A DNA stretch of 27,878 bases from Candidatus Bathyarchaeia archaeon (GTDB lineage Archaea > Thermoproteota > Bathyarchaeia > Bathyarchaeales > Bathycorpusculaceae): positions 1-27,878 of the forward strand of contig JBEKGO010000033.1 of assembly GCA_050012755.1 (NCBI GenBank), read 5' to 3'. The notes below the pieces were generated by a model. That model was not told the origin of the DNA. It searched no databases and saw only the letters and a list, made by a program, of their open reading frames with translations. Positions 11,661-27,569 of this stretch are shown piece after piece. The first letter of the stretch is position 1; each line of letters starts with the position of its first letter. Position numbers and translations under genes: made by a program.

Positions 11661-12135
11661 TTTTTTGGTACTTTTTTATACTTTTTCGTACGTTCCTAAC
11701 CTTTTTGGTACGTTTCAAACCTTTTCTAGCCTTTTCTAACCTTTTCTGTACGTGACCTGCAACTAATTCAAACCCTAAATCTAAAAAGCAACCCAAAACA
11801 CAAAGAAAAAAATTGCGCCACAAAAACCGTCAATAACTGGTTCGCGACGCGAAAAGCCAACCTGCCTCTTTCTTTTTTCTTCCGTTTTCTTACATTTTCT
11901 TGCAGATCCTTGCATTTTCTCACATTTAGAGAAGCAACATGCAAACAAACTAAGCTCTAATTCCAAAAAACAGTCTAAAACACAAAGAAAAAACCTATAC
12001 GAAAACCCATCAATGACGTTGCTTCGGTAGGGATTTTTTGGGATGTTTCTAGATGTTTTGGGATGTTTTAAGATTATGGTTGCAATAGATTTGAGCCCCA
12101 AAATTAGAAAAGCAACTTAAACCACAAAGAACAAA
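11661..12135 (+). repeat. cluster of 3 [10-mer array + 60-bp core] elements; cores at 11751, 11933 and ~12074
   Basis: Arrays of CTTTTCTAAC type (11661-11750), TACATTTTCT type (11871-11930) and GGATGTTTTG type (12031-12074), each followed by the core. Confidence 0.92.
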
Positions 12136-12247
12136 ATTTCATTAAGAATATTGTAGCCTTTTCTTGTCATATGTAGATTGTCTCTTTCAATATTCTGTCC
12201 TTTATCTGGACCTTCAGGGGCAGTCATAATATGTCGAAGATGCGAGT

Positions 12248-12643
12248 CTATTTAATGCTGTCTAATGTGGAACCGTTTGCCGCAGGTGTTATTTTTTTGA
12301 TTAGCCTCAAGTCTTCCGTTATTAGTTTTAGTTCTTTTGTCTTAGCAAAATAAACGTATGAAGCGTCGTAAAAAGTAATTTTTAGTTTTATTGCGGTGTC
12401 TAATATTTCTTCTTCACTGTCAGTTATCTCCATTACGTTCATTATGGTTAAGGTGTGCTTGATCGACTTTGCCAGCATTTTTGCTTCTTGCTCTGAAACC
12501 TTAGCGTGTAAGAGGCAGTCTTTCCAAATGATGTTTCCCAATTCATATCTTGCTAACTCTAAAGTGTAATTTCCAGCCAAAAACTCGATTTTGTTTTCTT
12601 TAATGGCTCTAAATATAGCTGAAGAATCAAAAAGACGCTTCAT
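12248..12643 (-). CDS. vapC: VapC PIN-domain toxin
   Basis: LFDSSAI, YELGNIIWK, ITFYDASY, LITED; ATGA overlap with the antitoxin. Confidence 0.93.
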   Translation of the reverse strand: MKRLFDSSAIFRAIKENKIEFLAGNYTLELARYELGNIIWKDCLLHAKVSEQEAKMLAKSIKHTLTIMNVMEITDSEEEILDTAIKLKITFYDASYVYFAKTKELKLITEDLRLIKKITPAANGSTLDSIK

Positions 12644-12873
12644 CGGCTATCCCTATCTTCTCTTATGCCCTTCACTATATCTTCTATGCTTACTTTTTCA
12701 AGTATCGGCTTCAACCTGTCTATCTCTTCTTTTAGCTCTTCCATCTCTCTTTTTTTCACTTCATCTTCAAGGGCTTTTCGCAAAATCTTAGACGGCTTGA
12801 TTTTGAACCTCTGAATTTTTTCTTTGAGTTGCTTGGGGATTTTTGTAGAAACTGTAACACATTGTTGCACCAA
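12640..12873 (-). CDS. vapB: cognate antitoxin (RHH/CcdA-like VapB)
   Basis: VTVSTKIPKQLKEK..IKPSKILRKALEDEV..IREDRD. Likely start TTG 12873 or GTG 12870, after GGTGA. Confidence 0.85.
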   Translation of the reverse strand: MVQQCVTVSTKIPKQLKEKIQRFKIKPSKILRKALEDEVKKREMEELKEEIDRLKPILEKVSIEDIVKGIREDRDSR

Positions 12874-13000
12874 ATTATTCTCACCGCATATTACTACTTT
12901 AAAGTAAGATAAAATAGTTTCCATAAGGTGCAAAGGAAATAAATAAGCAGTAACGTATGGAGCTGGGGATGGGAATTGGATCCATTTATGACAGCTTTTT

Positions 13001-13094
13001 TGGACTTATTTTGACGTTTTTGGACTTTTTCCGACTCAACCTGCCAAGAAATCAAACCCTAAACCAAAAAAGCAACTTGAAAAACAAAGAAAAA
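13001..13094 (+). repeat. single [10-mer array + core] element, GGAC/TGAC type; core at 13035
   Basis: TGGACTTATT TTGACGTTTT TGGACTTTTT CCGA|CTCAACCTGCCAAGAAATCAAACCCTAAACCAAAAAAGCAACTTGAAAAACAAAGAAAAA. Confidence 0.92.
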
Positions 13095-13274
13095 AATTCT
13101 GAAAAAAATAATTTGCGCTAAGAGAGCCTAACCAAGTAATAGGCATCTAATTTTCACAGAAGATCCTATACAAAGAAGAGAAGAGCTTTTCATGCGAATC
13201 AAATAGGAATATAGTTTCTCTCAGGCTTTTAGAACAACCTTATAAGTTAAAAAAACAAATAAGATTTGAGAAAA

Positions 13275-13469
13275 ATGACAATCGAAGTTGATCTAAAAGA
13301 AATAAAATCATTGCTGTCAGAGGTTAACCAGAAACTTGATTCGTTGCTTGAAGAAAAAGACACCCACGTAATTATGGCTCTTGAGGAGAAATCACTCAGG
13401 GATTTTCTAGAAAAAGAACCTGACCTTTATTCACTCAGAGACATCAAGGCAAAGGTTAAGTGTAATTGA
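13275..13469 (+). CDS. putative antitoxin of the MazF/PemK toxin
   Basis: Small acidic ORF (EEKSLRDFLEKEPDLYS) with TTGA overlap on the toxin. Start ATG 13275 or TTG 13266. Confidence 0.78.
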   Translation: MTIEVDLKEIKSLLSEVNQKLDSLLEEKDTHVIMALEEKSLRDFLEKEPDLYSLRDIKAKVKCN

Positions 13470-13792
13470 AAGGAAAAATAGTTCTGATCTCTTTTCCGTT
13501 TACTGACTTAACTTCGACAAAATTGAGGCCTGCGCTTGTTCTTTATGAAAGCGAAAAAGATGTCGTGGTAGCTTTTATTTCCTCAAGGATAGGAAAAGCA
13601 AGATCTGTTGACATTTTGATTAAGGAAAATCACTCAGAGTTCAAGAAGACTGGGCTTAAGGTTGCGTCGTCGGTAAGACTTGACAAATTGGCAACGTTAT
13701 CAAAAGAATTGATTCTTGGCGAAATAGGCGAAGTCGGTCCTAAACTTAAGATGGAAATAAACGAGAAAATATCTAAAACCCTCATTCTCTGA
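13466..13792 (+). CDS. mazF: PemK/MazF-family endoribonuclease toxin
   Basis: GKIVLISFPFTDLTSTKLRPALV, VVAFISS, TGLKVASSVRLDKLATL. Confidence 0.93.
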   Translation: MKGKIVLISFPFTDLTSTKLRPALVLYESEKDVVVAFISSRIGKARSVDILIKENHSEFKKTGLKVASSVRLDKLATLSKELILGEIGEVGPKLKMEINEKISKTLIL

Positions 13793-13870
13793 ACGGAAAA
13801 CATATCCAAGTTTGCGCATCTTTTCTTTGACTGTTAACCTTAGCTTTTTCACTTAGTTTCACTTTCTACT

Positions 13871-14281
13871 CTGAACATTTTTGGACTTTTTTGGACTTTA
13901 TTCGACTCAACCCGCAGCCCCTTCAAGCCCTAAATCAAGAAAGCAATCTAAAACACAAAGAAAAAAACCGCACAAAAACCTGTCAATAACTGATTCGGCA
14001 CGCAACAAACTAACCTGTCTTTTCCTTTTTCTTGTGTTTTTTTACAGATTCTTACATTTTTTTACATTTAGGGACGCAACCTGCAAACAAAACAAGCTTC
14101 AAAGCAAAAAAGCAGCTTGAACCACAAAGAACAAAAAATGGGAAGGGTTTGCTTAGGGTTGCTTAGGTTTGCGTGCTTTTGCTTCTGTTTACATGCTTGT
14201 GCTTAGGTTTACTTCTATTTACGCAGCCTGCAGACAAAACACAACCAAAAATAAAAAAGCAACCCAAAACACAAAGAACAA
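13871..14281 (+). repeat. cluster of 3 [10-mer array + core] elements; cores at 13906, 14075 and 14222
   Basis: Arrays of TTGGACTTTT type, TTTACATTTT type and GCTTAGGTTT type (14141-14220, 8 units). Confidence 0.92.
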
Positions 14282-14352
14282 AAAACAGACAAAACACGCC
14301 TACAAAACAGCACAAGCTCGGCGCTAAAACAAAAAAAGAAAATGGTGCGTTT

Positions 14353-14805
14353 TTAGTCTGTTCCTGATATGGTCATTGTGTCGCTGAAGCTTGAAATGCC
14401 AGTTATGCTTGGAGATACGGTTAACGTTATGGTTGCTGCTACTGCTTGCCCAGTTGATAGTTGTGCTCCTTGTTGGCTCCAGCTTATGGCTATGTAGGTG
14501 CTTGCTCCAGCGGGATTCCAATTGCTTGTTGTCAAGCTCAGTGTTATGGTGCCTGCGCCCGTGTTCTTTACGTAGACGGTTTGAGTGGCAACTCCTTCGG
14601 CTGAGATAGATCCCCAGTTCACTGAAGCCATTGTTGTGGTGCAGGCACTGTCAGAGTACACTCTGATGTTAGGCGAGGAGGTTGTGATTGACCCTGACGA
14701 ATTTATGTTTGCGCTCACGTTAATTTCACTGTAAGTGGTCATCGTTAAAGCGAACCCAGCCAAAACTAAACATATTATTGCAAAGATCATGATACTTTTT
14801 TGCAT
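14353..14805 (-). CDS. small secreted beta-rich protein, paralog 1 (candidate TasA/bundling-pilin-like subunit)
   Basis: Signal peptide, then SSGSI, VYSDSACT, VNWGSI, TVYVKNTG, WNP, FS..ITISG pattern shared with 16969-17475 and 18604-19053. Confidence 0.85.
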   Translation of the reverse strand: MQKSIMIFAIICLVLAGFALTMTTYSEINVSANINSSGSITTSSPNIRVYSDSACTTTMASVNWGSISAEGVATQTVYVKNTGAGTITLSLTTSNWNPAGASTYIAISWSQQGAQLSTGQAVAATITLTVSPSITGISSFSDTMTISGTD

Positions 14806-15123
14806 ATTTACCTCTCTCTAGGTAACGTTGTTTGAATTGCCAGCCTATGAATTTCGATGTAAACGAGAGTAACAAAAAAACACATGATACTTTTCTAGCT
14901 TCCACATTAGAAGCCACGGCTACAACAGCTGCCATAGCTGAAAACTTCCGTCACACAGCCTCCAAGGTTGATATTGGATTGAGAAATAAATGCAAATTGA
15001 TGTTGAACGGATGAATCTTTTTTAGTGAAGCCGACTTTGCAAACCCGTGAAGCCGTCTTTTCAAAAACCAATAAAAGTAATTACTTCCCAATAGGGGGCT
15101 TGAGGGTATTGAGAGGGGCAAAG

Positions 15124-15549
15124 ATGGTTAGACGATCGGTGTTTGAAAAAATATTTCGCGAGATGCAAAGCATCCATTTTCGACTAGATGACTTGGAAAA
15201 AAACATTTCAAGTTGGAGTCCACATCCGGTAGAACTACCTGAAGCAGACCTATTCTCGCTATCGGATCACCTCCGCAAGACATACATGACCGTTGCTTCC
15301 ACAGGTGAATGCGATGCCATCCAAGTTTCAACCAAAACAGGCAGATGCCGAGCACTAGAAAGCAACTACCTAAACCAACTCTGCCGAATGGGCTGGCTAA
15401 ACAAACGAAAAGTCTCCAAATCAACCCACTTCTACCTAGCCCAAGAAAAAACACCCAGAAAACAACCCTTAATCGTAGTAGATATCCCTCGAAAAATGCC
15501 CAAGCTCCAAATCGGAAAAGACTTCAGAAAATTCTTCGCTGAACCATAG
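15124..15549 (+). CDS. winged helix-turn-helix DNA-binding protein with an N-terminal coiled coil
   Basis: LSDHLRKTY..AIQVSTKTGRCRALESNYLNQLCRMGWLNKRK. Start ATG 15124 after GAGGGG. Confidence 0.8.
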   Translation: MVRRSVFEKIFREMQSIHFRLDDLEKNISSWSPHPVELPEADLFSLSDHLRKTYMTVASTGECDAIQVSTKTGRCRALESNYLNQLCRMGWLNKRKVSKSTHFYLAQEKTPRKQPLIVVDIPRKMPKLQIGKDFRKFFAEP

Positions 15550-15560
15550 GAATTAGAAAC

Positions 15561-15770
15561 ATGAAAAAACGAAACAGAACAATATCACTCTTGCTAATGC
15601 CCGCGATGGTTTTTGTCTGGGCACTCGGCTGGATCTTATACAACTTAGAATCAAAAAGCGAGCACAAAACCAGAAAAACAGTAACCCCCATAAAACTTAG
15701 ACAAACCTCAATAGGTTTTCCGCGAAGCTTCGCAGTTGAAAAACCCCCAAGAATCGATCCAACTCTTTAA
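15561..15770 (+). CDS. small single-TM protein
   Basis: Basic N-terminus then ISLLLMPAMVFVWALGWILY; starts 11 bp after the upstream stop. Confidence 0.65.
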   Translation: MKKRNRTISLLLMPAMVFVWALGWILYNLESKSEHKTRKTVTPIKLRQTSIGFPRSFAVEKPPRIDPTL

Positions 15771-15965
15771 CCCTAAACTTCAAAATCTGCTCTACCACCT
15801 TGCAAACGACACAATATTGGAAATCGGGTCTTCTAACCTGAAAAAAACACAATTTTGCCCTATTTAGGACTTAATTTATATCTACGTTTAACCTGTAGAT
15901 GCTCAAAAATCAAACGCAAGAGGACTGCGTTTCACCTACAATCAGCATCAAACAGGTTTCTAGAA

Positions 15966-16763
15966 ATGGCGGAAGATCAAGAAAACGTTTCAAAAGTACT
16001 CTCTACTCTCGCGCATCCAATAAGACGCAAAATACTCATGACTCTATGCGACAAAGGCGAAACCAGCTTCACCGACCTCATTAATGCACTAAATCTCGAT
16101 ACAGGCAGACTGAGCTTCCACATGAGAAGCCTCAAACCCTTCATAGAGCCGACAAAATCAGGAAAATACAAACTTAACCGAACAGGCGAAGACGCGATCA
16201 GAATCATTAGAGATGTAGCATCTTGGGCAGAACTTGCCGACCTAAAACGAAAAAGTGCCATGCTAACTCCGGCACCCATCAAAAACCGCATCTACGCATT
16301 TCTAATAGACTTCTACCTTATGTTCACCATTGCCGTGTTGCTTCTGCTTGAAACAGTAATTTCACAAGTTCAAGCCAACACAATAGGCGTTCTTTTAAAC
16401 CTGCTGTTTGTTTCATTAGGCATCCTCTGGATTTACTCCACTCTCTTTGAAGGCTTCAAAGGACAAACTCTGGGCAAACGCGCCTTAGGCTTGATAGTCA
16501 TAAGAACAGACGGCATGAAAGTAGACTACGAACACTCAGCAATAAGAAACTTTGGCAAGGTTATTCTACCCGTCGACCTAGTCTTAGGATACATGCTAAA
16601 GGACCCAAAATACATCCGCTACTTCGACAAATTCGCGGGAACCGCAGTCATCGAACTCCGCACCCGCCAAAACAAACTTCCCAAAAACACAAATCAGCAT
16701 GACCAAATGCAACCATTATTGCAACCTGAACTTCTTAATCAATCCAAACAAACCGTAAACTAA
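15966..16763 (+). CDS. ArsR-type wHTH fused to an RDD-family membrane domain
   Basis: LAHPIRRKIL..SFTDL..GRLSFHMRSL..Y.L followed by RIYAFLID, EGFKGQTLGKRALGL, IRN, DKFAGTAVI. Start ATG 15966. Confidence 0.9.
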   Translation: MAEDQENVSKVLSTLAHPIRRKILMTLCDKGETSFTDLINALNLDTGRLSFHMRSLKPFIEPTKSGKYKLNRTGEDAIRIIRDVASWAELADLKRKSAMLTPAPIKNRIYAFLIDFYLMFTIAVLLLLETVISQVQANTIGVLLNLLFVSLGILWIYSTLFEGFKGQTLGKRALGLIVIRTDGMKVDYEHSAIRNFGKVILPVDLVLGYMLKDPKYIRYFDKFAGTAVIELRTRQNKLPKNTNQHDQMQPLLQPELLNQSKQTVN

Positions 16764-16968
16764 ACCAAAAACGTCTGCAATTGGGTTCCGGTAACTTAGC
16801 GTGGGAAAATGCTTTCCATGTTAACGATCGTGAGATAACTCGTTTATTATGGTGATACAAACTTGCAAGTCATGCTGGGATGTCTCCAAAGGCTTTAACG
16901 AAAAAATGCTCTTCGAGAAAGATTTCTTAGGGAAAAAGGAAGGAGTGCAGGAAGGTTTTTGTGGTGAG

Positions 16969-17475
16969 TTATTGGGAGCCGGTTATGGTTATGCTGAAGT
17001 TGAACGAACCTGCTGTTGCGCTTGATGAAGCTGCCAATGTTAGGGTTGCGGAGGTTGATGCGCCTGCGGCTAGGGTTGTTACTGTGGGGACCCATGTGCA
17101 TGTGAGGTAGGTGTTTGCGTTTGATGGGGTATAATTGCTTGTGGTCATGCTGAGAGTCTCTGCGGTGTTGCCTGTGTTTTTGATGTAGATGGTTACGGTT
17201 GTTTGGCTGCCGGGGGTTATGGTTCCCCAGGTTACGGCTGACATGGCTGTTGTCAGGCCTGCGTCGCTGTAGATGGATACGCCAACTGTTTGGATTGGTG
17301 TTGGTGTGGGTGTTGATGGTGGAGGTGTTGGTGCGGGTGTTGATGTTGGTGTGATTGATCCGGTTGCGGCCAAGGTTTGATTTGCGCTTAACAAACCTGA
17401 AGTGGCTATGACAAGCATCATGCCAACTAAGCCTATTACGATTAGTACTCCTATGTTAGGTCTTTTCAACTTCAT
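16969..17475 (-). CDS. small secreted beta-rich protein, paralog 2 (with Pro/Thr insertion)
   Basis: MKLKRPNIGVLI signal peptide as in paralog 3; WGTITPGSQTTVTIYIKNTGN. Confidence 0.88.
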   Translation of the reverse strand: MKLKRPNIGVLIVIGLVGMMLVIATSGLLSANQTLAATGSITPTSTPAPTPPPSTPTPTPIQTVGVSIYSDAGLTTAMSAVTWGTITPGSQTTVTIYIKNTGNTAETLSMTTSNYTPSNANTYLTCTWVPTVTTLAAGASTSATLTLAASSSATAGSFNFSITITGSQ

Positions 17476-17590
17476 GTTCTTATTACCTTTTAGTATGGTC
17501 ACTTGAGTCGGAAGTATTAATAAATGTTACTTTGTGGAAATCTTAACTGTAAATATGCACAACAACGATACACAAACAAACCAAAGCAAA
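17476..17590 (-). promoter_or_regulatory. archaeal promoter (purine-rich BRE-like + TTTATTAATA at 17524-17515), duplicated upstream of paralog 3
   Basis: About 115 bp closely similar to 19054-19170. Confidence 0.7.
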
Positions 17591-17600
17591 CAAAGAATCG

Positions 17601-17882
17601 TTTTTGACGGGTAGTGACGTTCTGTGACGTTTTATGACGCGTAGTGACGCAGCCTGCAAAAGATTCAAACTTAGATTCGAAAATCAGTCTAAAACACAAA
17701 AACAAAAAATAGCACAAACACAAAAATGTGGGATCCCTAATAGCTTTCACTTATTTCACTTTTCTGCCCGAACTTTTTGGACCGTTTCAAACCTTTTCTA
17801 ACCTTTTCCAACCTTTTTAAACCGCAACCTGCAGATAAATCAAAGCCTAAACCAAGAAAGCAACTTGAAACAAACTGAACAA
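17601..17882 (+). repeat. cluster of 2 [10-mer array + core] elements; cores at 17648 and 17823
   Basis: GTAGTGACGT-type array (17601-17648) and ACCTTTTCTA-type array (17771-17822). Confidence 0.92.
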
Positions 17883-18138
17883 ATTTGAAACAAGAAAACA
17901 GGCTCACATAGACAGGCTTGGAACAACAAGAAGAATCGGCAGGACACATTCTGTCCAACACAAAAACAACCCACATTGACAAACAGATAGCAATTCTGAA
18001 AAAGTGTCTCATGAAATATTGCACTATTTTGATCAATTCTCTTGTTCACACGCATATCAGTTAGTACGAACCAACATTGAAAAATGCTATGAGCGTAGAG
18101 CAACACTACATATTCTAAATCAACTTGAAGTGAGCCGC

Positions 18139-18474
18139 ATGGTAAAACTACTATCGATAATTTGTTCTACACTATTTCTTTTAGGAGCAGCAGATTTGCT
18201 CACTACAGTGATTGGGGTCACAGGAAAAGGCGCAATCGAAGTTAACCCTCTTTTTGCAGCAATCATCCAGACAAACATCCTGGCTTTTGTTGGACTAAAA
18301 ATTGCCACTGTTCTTTTCACGGGCTTTATGTTTCTGGGCGCGGGAAGAATTTCTAAAGGGGCAGGCAGCAATATCTTAGGAAAATACTTTATGCTCTCCG
18401 CCTCATCTATCTCTTGTTTCATAATGACAGCAGTCGTAGCAAACAACCTCTTAGTCCTCCTACGAATTCCGTAA
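18139..18474 (+). CDS. DUF5658-like small membrane protein
   Basis: ADLLTTVIGV..GAIEVNPL..LKI..VVANNL with 3 TM segments. Start ATG 18139. Confidence 0.8.
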   Translation: MVKLLSIICSTLFLLGAADLLTTVIGVTGKGAIEVNPLFAAIIQTNILAFVGLKIATVLFTGFMFLGAGRISKGAGSNILGKYFMLSASSISCFIMTAVVANNLLVLLRIP

Positions 18475-18561
18475 CAAACTCAAAGCACTATTTTCCAAAA
18501 AGAAAGAACAAAGAAAACGCTGACAAGTTTTTGAAAATAGAATGCTCAAGAAAAAGGAGAG

Positions 18562-18593
18562 AAAGGGGATGAGAAGTTTTAGTTGTCCCCTTT
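18562..18593 (-). terminator. possible terminator downstream of paralog 3
   Basis: Inverted repeat AAAGGGGA..TCCCCTTT followed on the minus strand by a pyrimidine/T-rich tract. Confidence 0.4.
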
Positions 18594-18603
18594 TTACAGT
18601 TGT

Positions 18604-19053
18604 CTACTGAGTGCCGGTTAAAACAATGTTGCAGCTGAATGTTGTGAGTGCACTGGCGCCTGATAAAGCGGTCAGGGTCAGGGTGGCTAAGGTGGATTGT
18701 CCAGCGGTTAAAGTTGATAAGGTTGGCGACCAAGTTATTGTTAGGTATGTGCCTGCGTTTGATGGGGTCCAGGTATTTGTGGCCATGGTTAAGTTTTCTG
18801 CGATGTTTCCGGTGTTTTTAACGTAGATTGTTTGTGTTACTTGTGTTCCTGGCGATAGGGTTCCCCAAGATACTGTGGTTATTGGTACTGTGCATGCGGC
18901 GTCGCTGTAGACTCCAAGGTTTATTCCTGCTATTGTTCCGCTTGCGGATAGGGTTTGATTTGTGCTCAATAAACCTGCTGTGGCTATGATAAGCATCATG
19001 CCTACTATGCCTATTGCGATTAGTACTCCTATGTTAGGTCTTTTCAACTTCAT
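18604..19053 (-). CDS. small secreted beta-rich protein, paralog 3
   Basis: Signal peptide, LSASGTI, LGVYSDAACT, WGTLSPGTQVTQTIYVKNTGN. Confidence 0.9.
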   Translation of the reverse strand: MKLKRPNIGVLIAIGIVGMMLIIATAGLLSTNQTLSASGTIAGINLGVYSDAACTVPITTVSWGTLSPGTQVTQTIYVKNTGNIAENLTMATNTWTPSNAGTYLTITWSPTLSTLTAGQSTLATLTLTALSGASALTTFSCNIVLTGTQ

Positions 19054-19170
19054 GTTCTTATCCCCTTACTATATGGTCAAGTGAGTCTTAAGTATTAATA
19101 AACATTACTTTATGGAAATCTAAACTGAAAATATGCACAACAACAATACACAAACAACACAAAACAAACA
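19054..19170 (-). promoter_or_regulatory. archaeal promoter (TTTATTAATA at 19102-19093), duplicate of 17476-17590
   Basis: Direct alignment by eye. Confidence 0.7.
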
Positions 19171-19220
19171 AAACACCCACAAACACACCCACAAGCGCCG
19201 AAACAAACCAATTACACCCC

Positions 19221-19690
19221 TTTTCAACCTTTCAAACCGTTTTAAGCCACCTAAAGTCATTTCTAATCATTCCTAACCATCATTAACGGTTTCAAACCAC
19301 ACCGAAACTAATTCAAAACCCAAATCAAAAAAGAAGCTCAGAAGAACTTGAACGAAATTTGAAGTTGATTTTTTGGTTTTGTTGTTTGGTGACGTTTTGT
19401 GACGTTTTAAGACGCGTAGTGACTTTTAGTGACTTGTAGTGACTCAACCTGCAAACGGAGCAAACCCTAAACTAAAAACTCAACCCAAAACGACTAGAAC
19501 AAAATATAGCCTAAGAAACAATAATATGGAATCAGCTAACCTTCAATCTATTTCAATTCTCTGCCGTGAACATTTTTTGACATATTTTGACTTTTTTAGA
19601 CGAATTTTGACGTTTTTGGACTTTTTTTGACTCAACCTACAACCATTTTAAGCCCCAATTCAAAAAAGCAATCTAAAACACAAAGAACAA
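19221..19690 (+). repeat. cluster of 3 [10-mer array + core] elements; cores at ~19296 (diverged), 19443 and 19631
   Basis: AAAC/TAAC-type, GTGAC-type (19389-19443) and TTTTGAC-type (19571-19631) arrays. Confidence 0.92.
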
Positions 19691-19753
19691 AACCTGCACA
19701 AAAACCTGTCAATGACCGATTTCACACATTTCTAAAAGATGTTTCCAGGGGGT

Positions 19754-20479
19754 TTAGGGGTTGTGTTGTTTGTACCAGGTTTCCATGTATGTGTTGATTA
19801 TGTCTCCGTGGTAGCAGTTTCGGGTTGGGTTGTAGCTGAGGATTTCTCTGTTTTTTTCGTTTAGGTTGTAGTATGTGATTTCTGATATCATGGTTTCTTT
19901 GTCTGTGGATTCTTTGTTGCCGTAGCTTGCAAGTTTTGAGGCTTCTTCGATTACGTTGCCCATCCAAATTACTTCGCCTACGCCGCTGCCCCTGTAGCCA
20001 GTTTTCACCGCTAGGGCTTTTCCATATGACATTCCTACGCCAATGGCTATTTCTTTCAGGTTATTTTTCTTTAATTTATAATTCATTATGTCGATTAGGG
20101 ATGAAATTCTGGCTGCGGTTGAAAAAACTTCGTCGACGTCCTCTTGGAACGGAGTATCGAAAACCCCCCAAACAGAACCATCTGCGATGTTTATTTCCGC
20201 ACATTTTGGGTTGCCATTCATGACGGCGGTAACTTCAGAAATGAAGACTCTGTAAAGTTTGATGTCTGCTATGTTTGTATGAAAATTGGTCAGTTCAGGT
20301 GATTTGCGGATATCTACGCAGAGGGCTGAGCATTTGACGTAAAATCCGTTAATGTAGGTTAATTCGTTGCGGGCTGGGATGCGGTCTCGTTCCTCGTAGT
20401 TGCTGTCTTGGGCTGTTACTATTTGGTTGATTCGGTCAACGCTGTCTTTAACATTATACTCTGCATGGTCGGTTTTCAT
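19754..20479 (-). CDS. stand-alone class III nucleotide cyclase-fold protein with atypical catalytic motifs
   Basis: ALCVDIRKS, INIADGSVWGVF, IGVGMSYG, WMGNVIEEASKLAS, MISEITYYNL. Confidence 0.85.
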   Translation of the reverse strand: MKTDHAEYNVKDSVDRINQIVTAQDSNYEERDRIPARNELTYINGFYVKCSALCVDIRKSPELTNFHTNIADIKLYRVFISEVTAVMNGNPKCAEINIADGSVWGVFDTPFQEDVDEVFSTAARISSLIDIMNYKLKKNNLKEIAIGVGMSYGKALAVKTGYRGSGVGEVIWMGNVIEEASKLASYGNKESTDKETMISEITYYNLNEKNREILSYNPTRNCYHGDIINTYMETWYKQHNP

Positions 20480-20567
20480 TAATCTTCATCTATCCCCAGC
20501 CAATTATTAGGAATTTTGCCTTGCCTCCGCTGAGATTTTTCTGCTCAGTGCTATGCTTTCTGGCTGT

Positions 20568-21509
20568 TTAAACAATTGATGAAGTTCTCTGTACTTGGGC
20601 GTTTACAGCATCGGCTAACGCTTTACATGCTGCTTGCCTAGCCTCGGTCGATGTGTCGGTTTCCAGGTTCACTAGCTCTTCACGCAAACTCTCCATTCGA
20701 CCCATAATAGCCTGCTTTCGTTTCTCGTAATCTTCATCTAGTTTGCGCTGCTCATCGGCAAAATTCTGTTGCGCTACTTCGAGGTCATTCTTGGCAGACT
20801 TTAGATCTAGTTTCATTTGAGGAACTTTGTCGTCAGTTTTCTTTTTGAGGATTTTTCGTTTGCTATTCTCTTCTACTTGGCTTAGCACTTCACGTTCTAG
20901 TTCTCGCACGCGATTTGAAAGTCGTTGGAGTTCGGAGTCTTTTTTGGCGCTGAGTTCTTTGGCTTTTTCAGCATATTCTTTATCGGTTTCTACTAGAAGA
21001 TGATTGTGGTCAGTTAGGGCCTTCGCAACTGTGTCGATGTTTGCTTCTTCCATTTTTTTCTTCGAAAGTACATTTCCGACTTCAAGAAGAATCTGAGAGC
21101 GATCCTTGATAAACTGCTCATCCACTTTCACTGGGGAATCAGACTCAAAATCCGAGATGACCCGGCGCAGATTACTAAGCCAAGCATCATAATTTTCAGC
21201 AAAAGGAGAACCTGAAAAAGCCTGGGTTCCAAGCTGATTTGACTCGTTGAGCGTTTTCTCTGCAAGTTCTCTTAAATGTGCCAAATTTCTTTCTTCAACA
21301 GACTCATCGCTTACAGGTAATTGCGGTTTTTCAGCGCCCATCAGCGCTTTTAACGAATGGATTTCATCTTTCAAGGCGGCAATGTCATTTTCTAAAACAT
21401 TTGATTTAGCTTCAGCGATTCTTTTGAGTTCTTCAACTTCCGCTAAGAGGCTTTGTTTTTCAACTTCCAAATTTTTCAGTTTATCAACTGTACTCTTAAG
21501 ACTACTCAC
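20568..21509 (-). CDS. long coiled-coil hypothetical protein
   Basis: 313 aa, E/K/L-rich heptads, no TM; GTG start after GGGGGA. Confidence 0.85.
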   Translation of the reverse strand: MSSLKSTVDKLKNLEVEKQSLLAEVEELKRIAEAKSNVLENDIAALKDEIHSLKALMGAEKPQLPVSDESVEERNLAHLRELAEKTLNESNQLGTQAFSGSPFAENYDAWLSNLRRVISDFESDSPVKVDEQFIKDRSQILLEVGNVLSKKKMEEANIDTVAKALTDHNHLLVETDKEYAEKAKELSAKKDSELQRLSNRVRELEREVLSQVEENSKRKILKKKTDDKVPQMKLDLKSAKNDLEVAQQNFADEQRKLDEDYEKRKQAIMGRMESLREELVNLETDTSTEARQAACKALADAVNAQVQRTSSIV

Positions 21510-22136
21510 TCGAATAATCCCCCTTCATTCTTGGGACACAATATCTTTTTTTGCACTTAAAACTTTTGCATAAATGACCAGAAAAAAACGCCAAGTTGCC
21601 AAGAAAAGCAAGACCTAAGCACAATTAATACATACGCTAACTCGTAACAAAAAATTAAAGGCTGATGTAGCCTACATGAAAACAGCTTACTTAACGACTA
21701 ATAATTCGTTTCTTGGCAAAACCTCTATCTTAACAGCAACATCAACTGAATTAACAGAGTGTTTTTCATTCCTATTTACAATTTCTTTGTAGGAAATGAA
21801 ATAATTTAGCAATCTTGCTGCTTCTTCATATTGAATATTGCCTTCAATTCTTGCATTCTAATCGTTTCTCCTTTCTGGGAAACCGTATTATCTTAATTGA
21901 AGATCAAGCATTTCATAATAAGCACATACCGCTCACTCAGCTAACCGTCAATACGTGAAACTGCAACAGAAATCGCGAATAAATTTGCAAATATTGTATC
22001 TTAAAACTCAATATTGCAAGATTATAGACAAACACTGCATTTTTCCTCAATATTTCTTCTAATATTGATTCTGAATTCATAAGTGACTTATATATTCACA
22101 ATCATACTTGCCGCTAAGAATCAGGAAGGAAAAAAA

Positions 22137-22361
22137 ATGAAACAAATAACAAGCAAAAACAGGAAACAACTAAAAAACAAAATGTCAGAAGCCTTAAGCA
22201 GCAACATTAAAACGCTCTCAGCTGAAATGCAAGAAATACTAGTAGACGATCTTGTTACTGCATTCGAAAACAGATATGAAGTATTAAGCGATGCACAGTT
22301 AAACCTGCATTGCTTTGAAAACATTGGGGTGAAGGTTCCAAATGCGACGATCAAAGCTTGA
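22137..22361 (+). CDS. small hypothetical protein, coupled to the downstream wHTH
   Basis: LSAEMQEILVDDLVTAFENR; ATG 22137; 20-bp overlap with the next gene. Confidence 0.72.
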   Translation: MKQITSKNRKQLKNKMSEALSSNIKTLSAEMQEILVDDLVTAFENRYEVLSDAQLNLHCFENIGVKVPNATIKA

Positions 22362-22635
22362 AATGTATGTAGACATTCTCCAGGTATTAGCTTTCAAAGG
22401 ACCATTAAAACTAACACATATAATGTACAAATCAAACGTTAACTGCAAAGTTCTGAAATCTCAATTAGACTTCCTTATGAAAAACGGGTTAGTAGAAGAG
22501 AGAATTCTTCGAAGAGAAAAAGTAGTCTACGCTATTACACAAAAAGGCATCTCAACGCTGAAAGCATTTACTCAGATAAAACAAGTATTTCCAATTGAGG
22601 AAAAACAAGTCAGACAAGTGCCTCTTCTCTACTAA
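22342..22635 (+). CDS. archaeal winged-helix transcription regulator (HTH_45-like)
   Basis: MRRSKLEMYVDIL..THIMYKSNVN..LDFLMKNGLV..YAITQKG. Confidence 0.92.
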   Translation: MRRSKLEMYVDILQVLAFKGPLKLTHIMYKSNVNCKVLKSQLDFLMKNGLVEERILRREKVVYAITQKGISTLKAFTQIKQVFPIEEKQVRQVPLLY

Positions 22636-22804
22636 AAACTTTTTTTAACACTTTTAATGATGAGTCCAAAACCCCAAGTTACCTATTTCTTTCTTAATTT
22701 TTCTACTCACAGCTTTTGATCTGCGGCTTAAACTATTCATCACGCAATTTATTTTTGATTGAAATCAGTGTCGATCGAGCCAAGCTTGAACTCAACTTTT
22801 GATA

Positions 22805-23206
22805 TTAAACTGCATAATGCTCTCTATCTTTGGGAGAGCTACGCGCAATATTGAATTGCAAATTTTCATCACGTGATGGATTGTTCTCTGTTCCTATGAT
22901 TCTGCAAATTGTTTTTAGTGAACCAGTGGTGTATTCAAGCAAAGATTTTCCTTCACCTGTTAATGAATATACTTTTTTTGGTCGTTCCCCATTCATGTTC
23001 CATTGACATTTTATGAAGCTTTTCTTTTCCATAGTATTCAGTGTGGGGTATATTGTGCTTGCGCCAAAACTCACTCCATAGGATTTACGTATCGTCACTA
23101 TTAGCTCATATCCGTGCATTGGGTGGTTGTCGAGTAGTTGGAGGATGATTAGGTCTAATAGGCCTTTGGTGAGTTTCGTTTGGATGTTTTTGTGTACTAT
23201 GCTCAT
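22805..23206 (-). CDS. PadR-family transcription regulator
   Basis: GLLDLIILQLL..PMHGYEL..STIYPTL..ME..RPKKVYSLTGEG. Confidence 0.93.
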   Translation of the reverse strand: MSIVHKNIQTKLTKGLLDLIILQLLDNHPMHGYELIVTIRKSYGVSFGASTIYPTLNTMEKKSFIKCQWNMNGERPKKVYSLTGEGKSLLEYTTGSLKTICRIIGTENNPSRDENLQFNIARSSPKDREHYAV

Positions 23207-23481
23207 TTTTTTTCTTCCTGTATTTTTGTTGTGCAGGTGTACAATATGTCCGCTGTCAGACCTATTGCCACATGAATCTCAATATACAATAAAGTGCCAT
23301 ATAAAACCTGCGACATACCACAGGCATATCAAAACGCAACAAAAAAGCCCAAGCCAGACAAAAAACATTAAAAAACAAGGAAACAACCATTAGAAAACCA
23401 CTGAAAAGTGCCAACAAAACCGCAAAAAAGAACTGTACAACACAAATACATGAAAAAATAGAAGCAGAAGCATAAAATAAA

Positions 23482-23850
23482 CTAGAAGTTCTCAACATGC
23501 TGTTTTAATGAGTCAACGTAAAACTCAAAACTCAAATTTGATCCTTCCAGCAAATAATTAAATGAAGGATCCTTCTGCTTTAAAGCTTTCATTATAGCAA
23601 GTTCAAGGAGAAAGGCGGTCGGCCCAAAAACTTTTTCAAGTCCATCAACAAAATCCCCTATTCTGCCAGGTATGTCTTTCTTGCTTAGTTTGTATTTTTT
23701 GTCCAAAAAAGAAAAGAGCGCTTGCTTAGAATTCGTCCCGAGCAGAATTAAGAAAGATTGATCAATTGCTTCAAGAAGGAGGTCGTCAAACTTTGAATTT
23801 TGAAGATCTATCTGAATTTTGGGGAAGTTTTCAGTTTGTGTTTGATCCAT
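23482..23850 (-). CDS. conserved archaeal hypothetical protein (DUF3227/NitrOD5-like helical domain)
   Basis: LLEAIDQSF..LG..KQAL..L..KY.L...IP.RI..F..GLEKVFG..A.LLE..IMK.L. The family name is from memory. Confidence 0.75.
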   Translation of the reverse strand: MDQTQTENFPKIQIDLQNSKFDDLLLEAIDQSFLILLGTNSKQALFSFLDKKYKLSKKDIPGRIGDFVDGLEKVFGPTAFLLELAIMKALKQKDPSFNYLLEGSNLSFEFYVDSLKQHVENF

Positions 23851-24224
23851 TTTGGTGTCACTTCTTCCTTGCTGTTGTTTTGTCTTACTTGACTACAGTT
23901 TAAATGTAGTAAGTCTTAATATATCAATTACTTTGTTTTTTGACATATTACGAAAATCGATATATACAAAGAAGACATAAAACACATCAAAATTGAACTT
24001 GTCGGAAAGTTTATGACATATTGCATTAAACGAAATATCCCTTTTAAAGCTAAACCACCTCTAAATTTTTGAGGAGCAAAGGAGAAAGCTTCTTACGGGG
24101 AGAGGGAGAACCCTTATCCCTTCTCAGAAACTGAAAATGATTATCCCTCTAACCCGTATTTTTTTCAGATCAAGCGTAAATTTGCGAGTATGAAACAAGT
24201 TATTGACGGATTTTTGTGCGGTTT

Positions 24225-24470
24225 TTGTTGTTTGTGCTTTGGGTTGCTTTTTTGGTTTAGGCTTTGATTTGTCTGCAGGCTGCGTAAATAGAAGCAAACC
24301 TAAGCACAAGCATGTAAATAGAAGCAAAAGCAAGTAAACCTGCGCAAACCTAAGCAAACCCTGCCCCATTTTTGTTCTTTGTGGTTTAAGTTGCTTTTTT
24401 AATTTGGGGCTCAAATCTATTGCAACCATAATCTTAAAACATCCCAAAACATCTAGAAACATCCCAAAAA
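24225..24470 (-). repeat. cluster of 2 [10-mer array + core] elements on the minus strand; cores 24431-24372 and 24284-24225
   Basis: The GGAT-type unit is a near-identical inverted copy of 12036-12137. The GCTT-type unit is a close inverted copy of 14120-14281. Confidence 0.95.
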
Positions 24471-24529
24471 GTCAAGAAAAGTTGGAAGCGTGAGAAGAAA
24501 AGAAAATGGAATTAGCAGATTTCTTTAAC

Positions 24530-24742
24530 TTATGCAACTGTTACTTCTTTTTTTGCTAAACCTTCAACCATCAATGGAACTATTTTGCTGGCTCTAAGTA
24601 TTTCTAAGAAGAGAGGGTTGCCTCTGTCGTCAACGTGAAGTATCATGTCACCTACTTCTTGCGCCTGGGCAAGTTTACCTTTCTCTTTTACAAAAATCGT
24701 GAGCACATCTGCATCATCGTCATATTTGATTTTATAGGTCAT
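24530..24742 (-). CDS. DUF2283-family protein (putative antitoxin)
   Basis: IKYDDDADVLTI...ILHVDDRGNPLFLEILRAS. Confidence 0.88.
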   Translation of the reverse strand: MTYKIKYDDDADVLTIFVKEKGKLAQAQEVGDMILHVDDRGNPLFLEILRASKIVPLMVEGLAKKEVTVA

Positions 24743-24995
24743 ATCGATCTCTTCTTACAGGATAAAAGGTTATAATAACTAAAAAATCTTTTCTGCTCTC
24801 ATAAATGACTCTTAAGGCATGTTTACGGCTAATAACTTTGGAGGCAAGAAACTGACCGCCCCTTTCATCGAGCCGTTGAGGTTGAAGAACAACTTCCAAA
24901 ACCTTTTCTTTCCCAATTTCAAATCCGTATTGTTTCAGAACCTCGAATTTCTCAACAGCATGTTTTGTAAACCTGATTTTTGAAGCCCTATCCAA
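24732..24995 (-). CDS. DUF4258-like protein (putative RelE/BrnT-fold toxin)
   Basis: IRFTKHAVEK..V.EVV..P..LRVIYE..VIITFYP; overlaps the DUF2283 gene. Confidence 0.82.
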   Translation of the reverse strand: MDRASKIRFTKHAVEKFEVLKQYGFEIGKEKVLEVVLQPQRLDERGGQFLASKVISRKHALRVIYESRKDFLVIITFYPVRRDRYDL

Positions 24996-25092
24996 ACAAC
25001 TAATCCCTAAATCATGTAATAACGAAGTTTACAGATAAACTTTGCATATCACTATTTTGTCCAACTAGTTTACAATTCTGTTTCGGCAAATT

Positions 25093-25526
25093 TTGTTCTT
25101 TGTGTTTTGGGTTGCTTTTTTGGTTTAGGGTTTGCAATGTTTGCAGGCTGCGTGTTTATTTGTGTGAATTTGTGTTGAAATGTGTCTAATTGTGTTAAAA
25201 TGTGTTTATATGTGTAATTTTGTGTGGAAATGCGCGAAAACGGGGCGATTATTATAAGGTTTCTGCACAAGACTTTGTCCTCTGTACATTGGGTTGCTTT
25301 TTTAGTTTTAGGGTTTGATTTCTTGGCAGGTTGAGTCAAAAAAAGTCTAAATAAGTCCAGAAAAGTTCAGCAGGAAAAGTAAAGGGCAGTAGAGTATATT
25401 TTTTTGGGCAAAATTTTTTCTCTGTATTTTGGATTGTTTTTTGCTTTGGAGCTTGTGGCGTTTGCGGGTTGAGTCCCATAAATCATAGGAGTCCCCCAAG
25501 GTCCCAAAAAGCCAAAATGGTCAAAA
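25093..25526 (-). repeat. cluster of 3 [10-mer array + core] elements on the minus strand; cores 25473-25414, 25335-25275 and 25152-25093
   Basis: GGGAC-type (irregular), GGAC/TGAC-type and ACAC-type arrays (TGTGT every 10 bp on +, 25153-25230). Confidence 0.92.
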
Positions 25527-25564
25527 GAAAACCGTTTACTCAGATCTTTAATACAACTTCAGCC

Positions 25565-25966
25565 TTACTTCATTTCCTTTATTGGAATTGCGACCTTGCA
25601 TTTCTTTAGCAAGTCTGTGTCCGCAGTGACTAACCTCATTTCTTCTTTTTCAGCGATGTATGCATATGAAGCATCATAGAATGTAAGATGCCTATCTATT
25701 GCAACTGCCAAAACGTTGGCTAATGAGTCAATCTCCATCTTTCTTAGAGGTTGAATGAGTTCGAAAAAGATTGTTGCTACTCTTTTGGGGTCCTTGAGCT
25801 TTTTTTGCTGGTTTTCCCTCCAGAGCACGTTTCCAATCTCATATTCCGTTAGGGAACTCACTGCACATTCGTCTGCATTGAATGCAATACCCGAGAGAAG
25901 TATGGGATATAATGCAGAGGTGTCTATGAGATATTTACATCTCGTGCCTTGTCGCTTTGACATCAT
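25565..25966 (-). CDS. vapC: VapC PIN-domain toxin
   Basis: YLIDTSAL, YEIGNVLWR, LTFYDASY, LVTAD. Confidence 0.93.
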   Translation of the reverse strand: MMSKRQGTRCKYLIDTSALYPILLSGIAFNADECAVSSLTEYEIGNVLWRENQQKKLKDPKRVATIFFELIQPLRKMEIDSLANVLAVAIDRHLTFYDASYAYIAEKEEMRLVTADTDLLKKCKVAIPIKEMK

Positions 25967-26162
25967 TTACCCATTCCTCAGGTTTAACATCCATCAGACT
26001 GCTGAGTTCTTTAGCGATTTTCTGTGCTTTTGCTTTTTTTTCAGCCACTAATTCCTCAAGAAGTTGCTCCACAGCCACTTTTAAGTCAACTCCTAGCTTC
26101 TCAGCTTCATCTTTCAAGCCTTTCTTGACTCTTACAGATAAGACTTCAGTCATTGTATACAC
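25935..26162 (-). CDS. vapB: cognate antitoxin (RHH/CcdA-like VapB)
   Basis: VLSVRVKKGLKDEAEKLGVD..EEWVNDVKATR; overlaps vapC. Confidence 0.87.
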   Translation of the reverse strand: MYTMTEVLSVRVKKGLKDEAEKLGVDLKVAVEQLLEELVAEKKAKAQKIAKELSSLMDVKPEEWVNDVKATRHEM

Positions 26163-26205
26163 CTAAGATATAATGTATACGACTTTCATATAAGATTTTG
26201 TGACG

Positions 26206-26265
26206 CTTCATTTTGTTTGGTTAAACAATTCTTCGGTTTAGAGTTTGTGGGTTAGGCAGACTATA
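26206..26265 (-). repeat. degenerate core element between two vapBC pairs
   Basis: Minus strand TATAGTCTGC CTAACCCACA AACTCTAAAC CGAAGAA matches the first two thirds of the consensus in register. Confidence 0.45.
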
Positions 26266-26528
26266 AGCAAAAGGCCTTTGAAGAAAACAAGTGAAAGAAT
26301 CAGCAGTTAAGCGTTAATGAACAGGCTTTTATGGTTGTAAAACTGGAAAGTTGACATGGTATTCAGCGAAAGCTCAAAGACGCCCAAATAATTTTCTTGA
26401 CCATATATAGTAATGTCTTGATAACTTGGAAGCTTCCTTACATGAATCTTAGCTTTGGCACTGTCATATAATCAATAAATTGTTTGAGAATATTTTCTAT
26501 TATTTTTGCTTGAGCTTGAATAGCCATC

Positions 26529-26930
26529 CTATTTGAAAATAAGCTTCAAATAATCCAACTTGCCCAAGTGCTTTTGGTCGTTCGAATAAACCTCGTAGAT
26601 GCCTAACCTCATCATTAATGCTAGATTCACGCCATCGTTGAAATCTATATTTTCGGTAGCCATGTTACTTGCCCCAACAAGCAAATCATCCTGCGTACAA
26701 GCAACGACTTCAAGTGTTCGGTATGACATAATCTCCTCAAGTGTTGGCTTAATATCTCCCTGCCTGCCCATAGATTCTAGTACCCAAACTACCTCACACA
26801 GCACCAATGTAGAGGTTACAGCTCTCTCGCCTTTCTCAATGCGTTCAAGAATATCCTTGGAGATTTTGCCAAAACGTGGATGAGCTGTGAGGGTATAGAT
26901 GAAAATGTTGGTATCTAAAAAACGACTCAC
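26529..26930 (-). CDS. vapC: VapC PIN-domain toxin
   Basis: FLDTNIFIY, TSTLVLCEV, IDFNDG, VYSND; GTGA overlap. Confidence 0.93.
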   Translation of the reverse strand: MSRFLDTNIFIYTLTAHPRFGKISKDILERIEKGERAVTSTLVLCEVVWVLESMGRQGDIKPTLEEIMSYRTLEVVACTQDDLLVGASNMATENIDFNDGVNLALMMRLGIYEVYSNDQKHLGKLDYLKLIFK

Positions 26931-27196
26931 TCAAAATCCTCAACTAACTTTTTTCGAATATAGTCTCGCGCTAACTCCTTTGGCTCTTCAATGGGTCTCT
27001 CTATCTTTACGGAGCCGTACAGCGCCTCAGTCGGCTTATGATATGTCTTAACAGGTACTAGGCAAATACGACCCATGTAATCTGTAATGATAAGGCGAAT
27101 GCCCTCATCTATTCCATATTTTTTCCGAATTTTCTTAGGCAGTATCATACGTCCATATCTGCCAACTTCAACAGACATTTTTCCTATACCTGACAA
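26927..27196 (-). CDS. vapB: AbrB/MazE/SpoVT-type antitoxin
   Basis: VGRYGRMILPKKIRKKYGIDEG. Start may be ATG 27178. Confidence 0.9.
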   Translation of the reverse strand: MSGIGKMSVEVGRYGRMILPKKIRKKYGIDEGIRLIITDYMGRICLVPVKTYHKPTEALYGSVKIERPIEEPKELARDYIRKKLVEDFE

Positions 27197-27416
27197 ATAA
27201 TCAATTAAACGCCAAATATATGTTTTATTGCCAAAAAACAGTTTCGATTCTTAGAGAGTGTATCTTGTTAGCGCTGTTTCGATATTCAACTTAATCACTA
27301 TCTCTTGTGTTACTACTTTATTATTTTGACGAATTAACTAATTAGTATTTTGCTATTTTTTGAATTTAGTGAAGTAGCCTTATTTATCTTATGGACTACA
27401 ATGTTTTAATTAAACT

Positions 27417-27550
27417 TTGGTCTTTGTGCTTCAGTTTGATTCTTTTGTTCAGGATTTGCCACGTTTGAATGTTGCGACTAGATTTGACTGATTTAGGCTC
27501 TTTATGACTTGATTAGACTCTTATTGACTATTTTTGACTGATTCTGACTT
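27417..27550 (-). repeat. single [10-mer array + core] element, AGTC type; core 27476-27417
   Basis: GACT (one GGCT variant) recurs every 10 bp on + at 27476-27549 (8 units). Minus-strand core CGCAACATTC AAACGTGGCA AATCCTGAAC AAAAGAATCA AACTGAAGCA CAAAGACCAA. Confidence 0.88.
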
Positions 27551-27569
27551 ATTCTCTAAATGCTTTGGT

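Follow-up and report, generated by a model that had tools for sequence, protein, structure and literature searches.

A modular interspersed repeat family with BOX/REP-like features in a genus of Bathyarchaeia, and its possible role as a recombination substrate

Dispersed repeats can act as portable homology, as in inversions mediated by insertion sequences (IS) or rRNA genes, and some of them are modular, the BOX element being laid out as boxA-boxB-boxC. BOX, RUP and SPRITE of Streptococcus pneumoniae are small interspersed repeats, judged in their description to be parasitic and not host-specialised (PMC3049150). Repetitive extragenic palindromes (REPs), which alternate in bacterial interspersed mosaic elements (BIMEs), form another such group (PMC2817692). 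Integrons and clusters of attC sites lacking integron integrases (CALINs) have been reported in Archaea, and are defined by the integrase IntI, by clustered attC sites with single-strand folding, or by both (PMC9668308). Here we analyse a repeat found in 27,878 nucleotides (nt) of Candidatus Bathyarchaeia archaeon DNA (the window), which is the entire contig JBEKGO010000033.1 (C33) of assembly GCA_050012755.1 (G000). A preliminary description of this DNA had proposed that directly repeated cores between its toxin-antitoxin (TA) modules were capture or excision sites of an integron-like cassette system without attC. We hold with moderate confidence that the cores belong to a new BOX/REP-like family of small, non-coding, modular interspersed repeats that acts as a recombination substrate. 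The integron analogy is not supported, and fails on every defining feature tested. No published description of the repeat family was found in open-access full text.

The genome comprises 2.41 Mb in 65 contigs with 41% G+C, and mcrA was not found in it. Its relatives are Candidatus Bathyarchaeota/Bathyarchaeia metagenome-assembled genomes (MAGs) of peat and soil origin; the closest species (G128) shows 92% identity in a marker gene. Genes were called with our own hexamer-score open reading frame (ORF) caller (2316 called genes). The repeat profile was seeded with nine copies from repeat finding, iterated on the genome and searched with nhmmer, and an Infernal sequence model, independent of this profile, provided a second detection. 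The iterated profile found 17 copies in the window. The Infernal model recovered the same copies, a weak copy (19271-19361) and two marginal rows, and Tandem Repeats Finder (TRF), run independently, reported arrays of period 10, 20 or 30 at every window copy. The copies lie on the plus strand from 11.7 to 19.7 kb and on the minus strand from 24.2 to 27.5 kb, as follows:

11662-12140, plus strand: cluster of three copies (11703-11821, 11885-11996, 12032-12140), each with a separate 10-nt word (nhmmer, Infernal, TRF)
12994-13105, plus strand: lone copy (nhmmer, Infernal)
13863-14292, plus strand: cluster of three copies (13863-13973, 14028-14142, 14174-14292) (nhmmer, Infernal, TRF)
17602-17889, plus strand: cluster of two copies (17602-17717, 17775-17889) (nhmmer, Infernal)
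19271-19703, plus strand: weak partial copy (19271-19361) and two full copies (19395-19512, 19585-19703) (nhmmer, Infernal)
19754-24150, no strand assigned: block without elements, holding two unknown genes, HTH_45, PadR and one more gene (Pfam, synteny)
24213-24478, minus strand: cluster of two copies (24213-24332, 24363-24478) (nhmmer, Infernal)
25082-25523, minus strand: cluster of three copies (25082-25193, 25265-25369, 25402-25523) (nhmmer, Infernal)
26190-26300, minus strand: degenerate core claimed in the preliminary description, undetectable
27411-27555, minus strand: partial copy (27411-27493) with a period-10 array extending to about 27555 (nhmmer, Infernal, TRF)

The degenerate core had been placed at about 26265, where the search of a 381-nt target with filters off returned -0.5 bits (E = 5.2). 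The segment 25091-25307 is 97% identical to a pair of copies on contig C60.

Genome-wide, 134 copies were identified. For the alignment and model set, 82 of these were chosen (E <= 1e-12, near full length) and two with long insertions were removed, leaving 80. The core could be anchored in 114 of the 134 copies, and the information profile anchored on it covers 111. The element is about 120-135 nt long and consists of a 5' periodic part and a 3' conserved core. The periodic part contains five to seven tandem units of exactly 10 nt, whose final two positions are A (67%) and C (88%) and whose preceding positions are mostly AT-rich, above all T-rich; the 80-copy alignment shows C at columns 8, 18, 28, 38 and 48 in 90% or more of the copies. 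The unit "word" is uniform inside a copy, where five units agree 78% with their own consensus, whereas the unit consensuses of different copies agree only 47%. More than 12 words occur, several of them at many loci. The core is A/C-rich and unstructured, with three conserved short blocks (CCTGCA, AAAAAGCAAC and CACAAAGAAC), and its homology extends over about 65 nt at roughly 80-90% identity. An optional tail with CCGTCAATAAC is present in a subset of copies. A tail motif, CCGTCAATA..., lies 3' of a subset of cores genome-wide; in the window it is isolated at 21944-21956, where G128 has three copies, and so may be the relic of a lost copy.

Folding was assessed on every second copy of the aligned set (40 of 80), on both strands. 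There was no fold above shuffles (mean z of 0.04 for the top strand and -0.12 for the bottom strand), and no Rfam family was matched, three sub-threshold rows being at chance level; a structured RNA or attC-like hairpin was rejected on these grounds. The copies might instead be small non-coding RNA genes or transcribed leader or trailer modules, as the conserved 65-nt core and the transcription of similar bacterial repeats (BOX; PMC3049150) would allow. This is very improbable, given the lack of folding and of an Rfam family, the absence of a recognisable promoter in the element, and an orientation that is unlinked to genes. Terminal inverted repeats are absent: self-complementarity is not above shuffles, the 5' end being T-rich and periodic and the 3' end A-rich. 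A retro-element was rejected with no reverse transcriptase found in the genome, although 126 of 134 copies extend to model position 110 while 39 of 134 begin only beyond position 10.

The copies occupy 77 intergenic loci or clusters, comprising 40 singles, 25 pairs, 6 triples, 4 quadruples and 2 quintuples, and 132 of the 134 overlap no called gene by more than 30 nt. None of the 37 multi-copy clusters is of mixed orientation. The 77 clusters lie between divergent (22), convergent (16) or tandem (27) genes or at contig ends (12), with no bias toward promoter or terminator sides. A promoter or terminator role was rejected, there being no orientation bias toward gene starts or ends. Genes within 500 nt of a copy make up 5-7% of every length class (47/675, 39/777, 39/622 and 15/242). 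The 138 genes that flank clusters match 240 Pfam families and include RNA polymerase Rpb2, aconitase, carbamoyl-phosphate synthase, class I and II tRNA synthetases, IF-2B and Nop; one pair of copies is located between eIF-6 and rpL31e. Copies are borne by 10 of the 130 contig ends.

The family is confined to one genus of Bathyarchaeia. A match was present in 74 of 100 other species of the genus and lacking in 26, with copy numbers per genome from 0 to at least 36 and a single copy in G003. The element is mostly missing from those species that a conserved 3.3-kb gene places farthest away, and none of 12 genomes of other families in the order had a match in a BLAST-type search, which is less sensitive. 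A pattern scan of one genome per prokaryote species gave 111 matches, of which 34 were true copies; the 24 checked for taxon were all from Bathyarchaeota/Bathyarchaeia MAGs.

The element shares with BOX, as described, intergenic copies numbering about 100 or more, internal tandem sub-units that vary in number, the lack of its own transposase, and a restriction to one species group at very uneven densities (PMC3049150). It differs from BOX in having no secondary structure, which is extensive in BOX (PMC3049150), and in its archaeal host, its strictly same-orientation arrays and its phased 10-nt sub-unit with a copy-specific word. It is thus of the BOX type in being modular, high-copy and intergenic, with variable tandem sub-units and an occurrence in close relatives only, but no homology to BOX in structure or sequence was found (no fold, no Rfam match). 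REPs and BIMEs are likewise high-copy extragenic repeats that form composite clusters and serve as rearrangement substrates; REPs are palindromic and alternate in BIMEs, whereas the element has no palindrome and its clusters are never mixed (PMC2817692). Unlike in systems of REPs with their associated tyrosine transposases (RAYTs), the genome's only Y1 transposase gene is of an ordinary IS200-like type that has hairpin ends of its own. MITEs (miniature inverted-repeat transposable elements) are also small, non-coding, intergenic and multiplied within a lineage. Unlike them, the element has no terminal inverted repeats, and no parent IS was found. Filled and empty sites were compared with regard to target duplication, and their intergenic DNA is too diverged for base-exact ends. 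The element works like BOX/RUP or REP/BIME and is a member of neither.

Comparison with related species at three sites, each between conserved housekeeping genes that adjoin one another, showed that the element is there or missing by itself. At the first (C2:32177), three species (G015, G042, G018) have a 73-98-nt gap without a copy, G051 has a copy in the opposite orientation and G128 a copy in the same orientation. At the second (C2:37527), there is no copy in G051 and G042 and one copy each in G039 and G128, and at the third (C1:117554) there is no copy in G051, G015 and G018. The preliminary description had led to the expectation of empty sites retaining a single core in relatives; the compared empty sites contain no element. 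From 11 to 28 kb of the window, only the block 19754-24150 is syntenic in G128, and it ends 50-120 nt from the flanking clusters. The copy 19585-19703 is retained in a paralogous block of G128. Relative to window positions 21589-21706, G128 also has a 4-kb insertion (contig G128:C11, locus L200, 1883-5978) that carries one Ig-like ORF of 246 aa and another of 949 aa with no Pfam match; its ends are without element copies.

The possibility that the element acts as DNA in cis for the host was considered alongside these data. Its phased AT-tracts would then form a bent or protein-wrapped segment (histone or nucleoid-protein positioning, an insulator or a two-way terminator with abundant T-runs), with the different words bound by paralogous factors. 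The strict 10-nt phasing, with a nearly invariant C per 10 nt over five to seven units, is consistent with such a function, as are the strictly intergenic position, the conservation of the consensus across species and the T-runs that in many copies face incoming transcription from both sides. We nevertheless consider it unlikely, as gene starts and ends are not preferred, copies are present or absent at orthologous sites without other change, and copy number varies widely among sister species. The periodic part of some sub-families is also without T-runs, and tandem arrays of up to five copies fit poorly with a single local function. A role as restriction-site decoy was rejected, the core hexamers not being avoided elsewhere in the genome (ratios 1.02-1.12).

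With regard to REARRANGEMENTS and mosaics, a 5.6-kb segment on contig C1 is cleanly inverted relative to G128, with both outer genes conserved. The end-points of this inversion lie at element arrays in mutually inverted orientation. On contig C17, a gene (A) lies across a 9-kb block, inverted, in comparison with G128. Over its periodic part (53/71) and core (62/71), the junction copy in G000 resembles the G128 copy beside A; at the element's 3' end it then switches to the flank that accompanies the G128 copy on the side of gene B (66/92). A simple inversion was rejected for C17, since the outer flank that it would require (gene D) does not adjoin the G128 copy, and the event is therefore called a rearrangement. 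The inversion bounded by inverted copies and the mosaic copies resemble what is seen with the portable homology of IS or rRNA repeats, which differ from the element in that its homology is only about 65 nt at roughly 80-90%.

Mosaicism was also evident among copies within the genome. How far two copies differ in the periodic part shows no correlation with how far they differ in the 3' part (Mantel r 0.05, p 0.16), and 347 of 516 similar copy pairs share less than 20 nt upstream of the core. Whole elements are also near-identical at distant loci, at up to 98% identity. Long homology (at least 120 nt) lay on the 5' side in 28 copy pairs and on the 3' side in 14, which is suggestive only. The histogram of end-points of short high-scoring segment pairs was uninformative because the core is shared by all copies. 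A unit running from core to core was rejected, as linkage of the 3' half with the next periodic part (r 0.14) is not above that within elements (r 0.25 and 0.09). Four peat or wetland read runs contain the organism at low depth and with short contigs. Read "joints" between copies had sides of 26-55 letters in repeats, often with foreign letters between, and possibly come from other copies or organisms, so that they weigh neither for nor against excision or circles. Metagenome contigs queried with the RDD/HTH protein gave no relative.

Within the window, element pairs in inverted orientation are closest to each other. The segments 14095-14294 and 24212-24411 are 87% identical over 200 nt, and 12032-12110 and 24395-24473 are 95% identical over 79 nt, inverted and each other's closest relatives. 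The 10-kb segment between the inverted pairs could flip by recombination.

The TA modules on which the preliminary description was centred are listed below. Each consists of adjacent small genes, and the type II arrangement, in which one gene has a PIN or PemK toxin fold, is present in the window.

12248-12933, minus strand: vapBC-like pair, PIN gene 12248-12643 and weak CcdA-like antitoxin 12640-12933 (Pfam)
13266-13792, plus strand: small ORF 13266-13469 and PemK/MazF gene 13466-13792 (Pfam)
24530-24995, minus strand: DUF2283 gene 24530-24742 and weak DUF4258 gene 24732-24995 (Pfam)
25565-26162, minus strand: vapBC, PIN gene 25565-25966 and antitoxin 25935-26162 (Pfam)
26529-27196, minus strand: vapBC, PIN gene 26529-26930 and MazE/AbrB-type antitoxin 26927-27196 (Pfam)

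The placement of five TA modules between direct-orientation copies was borne out by nhmmer, Infernal and Pfam. All five are real by Pfam, two of them only weakly: two PIN genes and PemK pass the curated cut-offs, and the PIN gene 12248-12643 (E 9e-4) and DUF4258 fall below. As the core at about 26265 is undetectable, the last two vapBC pairs are bracketed only jointly. The DUF5658 block (18004-18474) and small Ig-like genes, probably the "pilin-like" genes of the preliminary description, are likewise bounded by direct-orientation copies, as had been stated.

These arrangements resemble integrons and CALINs, which also have short direct-oriented sites between small genes, many TA modules, ORF-less units, and sites more alike within than between genomes (PMC9668308). 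Two or more same-orientation sites less than 4 kb apart make up an integron array. For clusters separated by no more than 5 kb, orientation is the same in 21 of 23 cases; as they do not consist of attC sites, the likeness is one of resemblance only. The element differs from integrons in lacking IntI and an attC fold and in occupying 77 loci, against the one platform of an integron. It also differs in that its sites lie beside housekeeping genes, do not travel with TA modules, and form tandem arrays without cargo. The analogy with integrons was not upheld: there is no IntI, no fold, the loci number 77, and TA homologues elsewhere are unbracketed.

There are 10 tyrosine-recombinase-like genes in the genome, none of which is on this contig, within 7 kb of a copy or IntI-like; PF00589 gave no match on C33, and the best whole-genome score for IntI (TIGR02249) was 37.4 bits against a cut-off of 265. 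No serine recombinase was found in the genome. The preliminary description had noted no recombinase in the window, and the linked tyrosine or serine recombinase for which it proposed a search was not detected. The single IS200-like tnpA in the genome (contig C64) has ends unrelated to the element. It adjoins two GC-rich hairpins, and the final 122 nt of C64 recur unchanged where C18 starts. One weak TnpB-like match was present, and no autonomous IS with the ends of the element was found in the genome, whose assembly in 65 contigs may lack such an IS. The search for an IS91-type rolling-circle enzyme gave no Y2_Tnp match and was silent in control genomes too, so that it carries little weight. 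There is no tRNA gene in the window, and tRNA-linked integration was rejected.

The homologues of the window modules were examined in other species. The five modules have DNA homologues (70-89% identity) at 25 loci in 16 species, with 30 BLAST rows amounting to 28 distinct module-locus matches. Not one of these loci is bracketed, and at 5 of them one partial copy lies within 2.5 kb; homologues of the vapBC-like pair 12248-12933 show 82-89% DNA identity and are without flanking elements. The five closest species add 8 further loci, of which one is bracketed loosely and another four lie 0.8-2.9 kb from a lone copy. In total, of 33 loci in other species, none is tightly and one is loosely bracketed. 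At 34 element-bearing loci in other species, 78 flanking genes match 143 families, led by ABC ATPases and SAM synthetase, and neither PIN nor MazE is among the 25 families listed. Within the genome itself, 19 of 27 PIN genes have no copy within 2 kb. A second, different TA-rich island is present on contig C41, with five PIN genes within 10 kb (4160-14322) and zero copies.

Several observations weigh against a simple family of spreading repeats, and most of them also bear on a rival explanation, a genuine cassette system. In this explanation the element is the site of a putative site-specific recombinase, the unit is "cargo + downstream element" with exchange at the 3' end, arrays grow at any resident copy, and TA modules are a frequent stabilising cargo. 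We regard it as improbable overall. It is consistent with the coherence of orientation, which plain random insertion does not predict. Neighbouring clusters share orientation in 21 of 23 cases up to 5 kb and 26 of 30 up to 10 kb (20/23 up to 10 kb without this contig, and 5/13 beyond that distance), in other species in 10 of 11, and a mixed cluster is never seen. It is also consistent with variable cargo. At one orthologous site between CRS1 and a dehydratase gene (on contig C13), all elements have the same orientation but different words: G000 has a copy, an MNT-HEPN pair and two further copies; G076 has two copies without cargo on its contig C15; and G128 has a 182-aa Zn-ribbon ORF and one copy. 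On contig C16 of G076, this site is a 54-nt gap with nothing inside. Inside the syntenic block of the window, G128 has an extra segment of about 1.08 kb, consisting of two copies, a 74-aa ORF and a third copy, where G000 has 103 nt and no copy.

The junctions and the TA genes point the same way. Both resolved junctions lie toward the 3' end of the element and are not spread over the homology (n = 2, the second not being a clean hybrid); on C17 the upstream gene keeps the element body, the switch being at the 3' end, and on C1 the downstream gene keeps only the 3' tail and flank. PIN genes are enriched within 500 nt of an element (7/27 against 140/2316 genes, p = 8e-4; 4/24 against 123/2285 without this contig, p = 0.04), and 4/27 against 30/2316 have elements on both sides within 1500 nt (Fisher p = 3e-4). 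Bracketed TA pairs are found at 8 places in the genome, among them on C13 (HEPN/MNT), C54 and C61. The genome-wide enrichment that the preliminary description proposed to test was found for PIN genes; housekeeping genes are flanked as well. Two further points, both against selfish spread alone, are that no mobilising enzyme for the element was found in the genome, and that the best score elsewhere is 93.5 bits against 95.4 here, though genes are only 75-92% identical. Such equal upkeep of the consensus across species implies constraint by a trans-acting factor or a host function.

Other evidence argues against a cassette system. In addition to the missing integron integrase, serine recombinase and reverse transcriptase, the unrelated ends of the IS200-type transposase and the distance of every tyrosine-recombinase-like gene from copies, there are many single copies between housekeeping genes, and empty orthologous sites contain zero copies and not one. 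The homologues of the TA modules are unbracketed at 32 of 33 loci elsewhere, and the families listed for other species show no TA excess beside the element. Linkage across junctions is not stronger than inside elements, and gene orientation within units is mixed. The idea of capture or excision sites is weakened by copies being equally common beside housekeeping genes and any others, at 5-7% of genes in each length class; the related expectation that module boundaries coincide with cores held in part, as some presence/absence boundaries, one inversion and one rearrangement end at elements.

Under the favoured reading as a BOX/REP-like family, copies multiply in intergenic DNA whatever the function of the neighbouring genes, probably by selfish spread. 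They accumulate head-to-tail in one orientation, turn over fast between species and recombine with each other via dispersed homology, probably by the general (homologous) machinery. As the copies supply this homology, mutual recombination would account for their mosaic make-up and for their position where inversions and rearrangements join and where small variable segments end. We infer that TA modules lie between copies here because the window is a flexible island where both accumulate, and segments bounded by direct repeats may persist better if addictive or essential. Plain selfish spread does not explain the local coherence of orientation, the variable cargo or the TA excess in this genome. 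Possible sources of these three features are insertion into existing same-orientation arrays, the swapping of segments between arrays by way of the cores they have in common, and a survival advantage for addictive or essential segments flanked by direct repeats. Alternatively, though we think it unlikely, they could indicate a real, enzyme-driven cassette mechanism. In its most specific form, likewise unlikely, an attC-less cassette system unrelated to the integron integrase would have "cargo + downstream element" swapped at the 3' end by a putative enzyme, with arrays seeded at many chromosomal sites gathering TA modules and further small genes; there the 10-bp phased array may help by DNA bending.

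Other repeats in the window were also noted. A 581-aa protein with Big_3_5 and a BNR motif (8376-10121, minus strand) contains a 12/18-nt periodic repeat (8499-8923), probably the Pro/Thr-rich linker of a surface protein, and a shorter resembling repeat (17285-17352) lies inside an Ig-like gene (16969-17502). A 125-nt direct repeat (86%; 8123-8247 and 10640-10764) is on either side of the 581-aa surface-protein gene. A 159-nt direct repeat, 98% identical (712-870 and 2571-2729), flanks a DUF1616 gene and a 261-aa unknown gene; it is not related to the element family, although a marginal model match (688-762) overlaps its first copy. A 241-nt repeat (86%; 17354-17594 and 18932-19172) corresponds to the starts and upstream regions of paralogous Ig-like/CARDB-like genes (16969-17502 and 18604-19053), to which 14353-14805 is apparently related.

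Bathyarchaeia are abundant and uncultured, and the forces shaping their genomes are almost unknown. The build of the repeat, phased 10-nt words joined to an unstructured core with no palindrome or inverted ends, is unlike described prokaryotic repeats. The family breaks assemblies, as at the copy-bearing contig ends of this MAG. It also marks inversion and rearrangement junctions and small variable segments of sister species, and can be confused with cassette sites. If an enzyme or binding protein exists, it would represent a new archaeal recombination or chromatin system; if none exists, the family would be a clear-cut example of archaeal genome plasticity driven by short dispersed homology.

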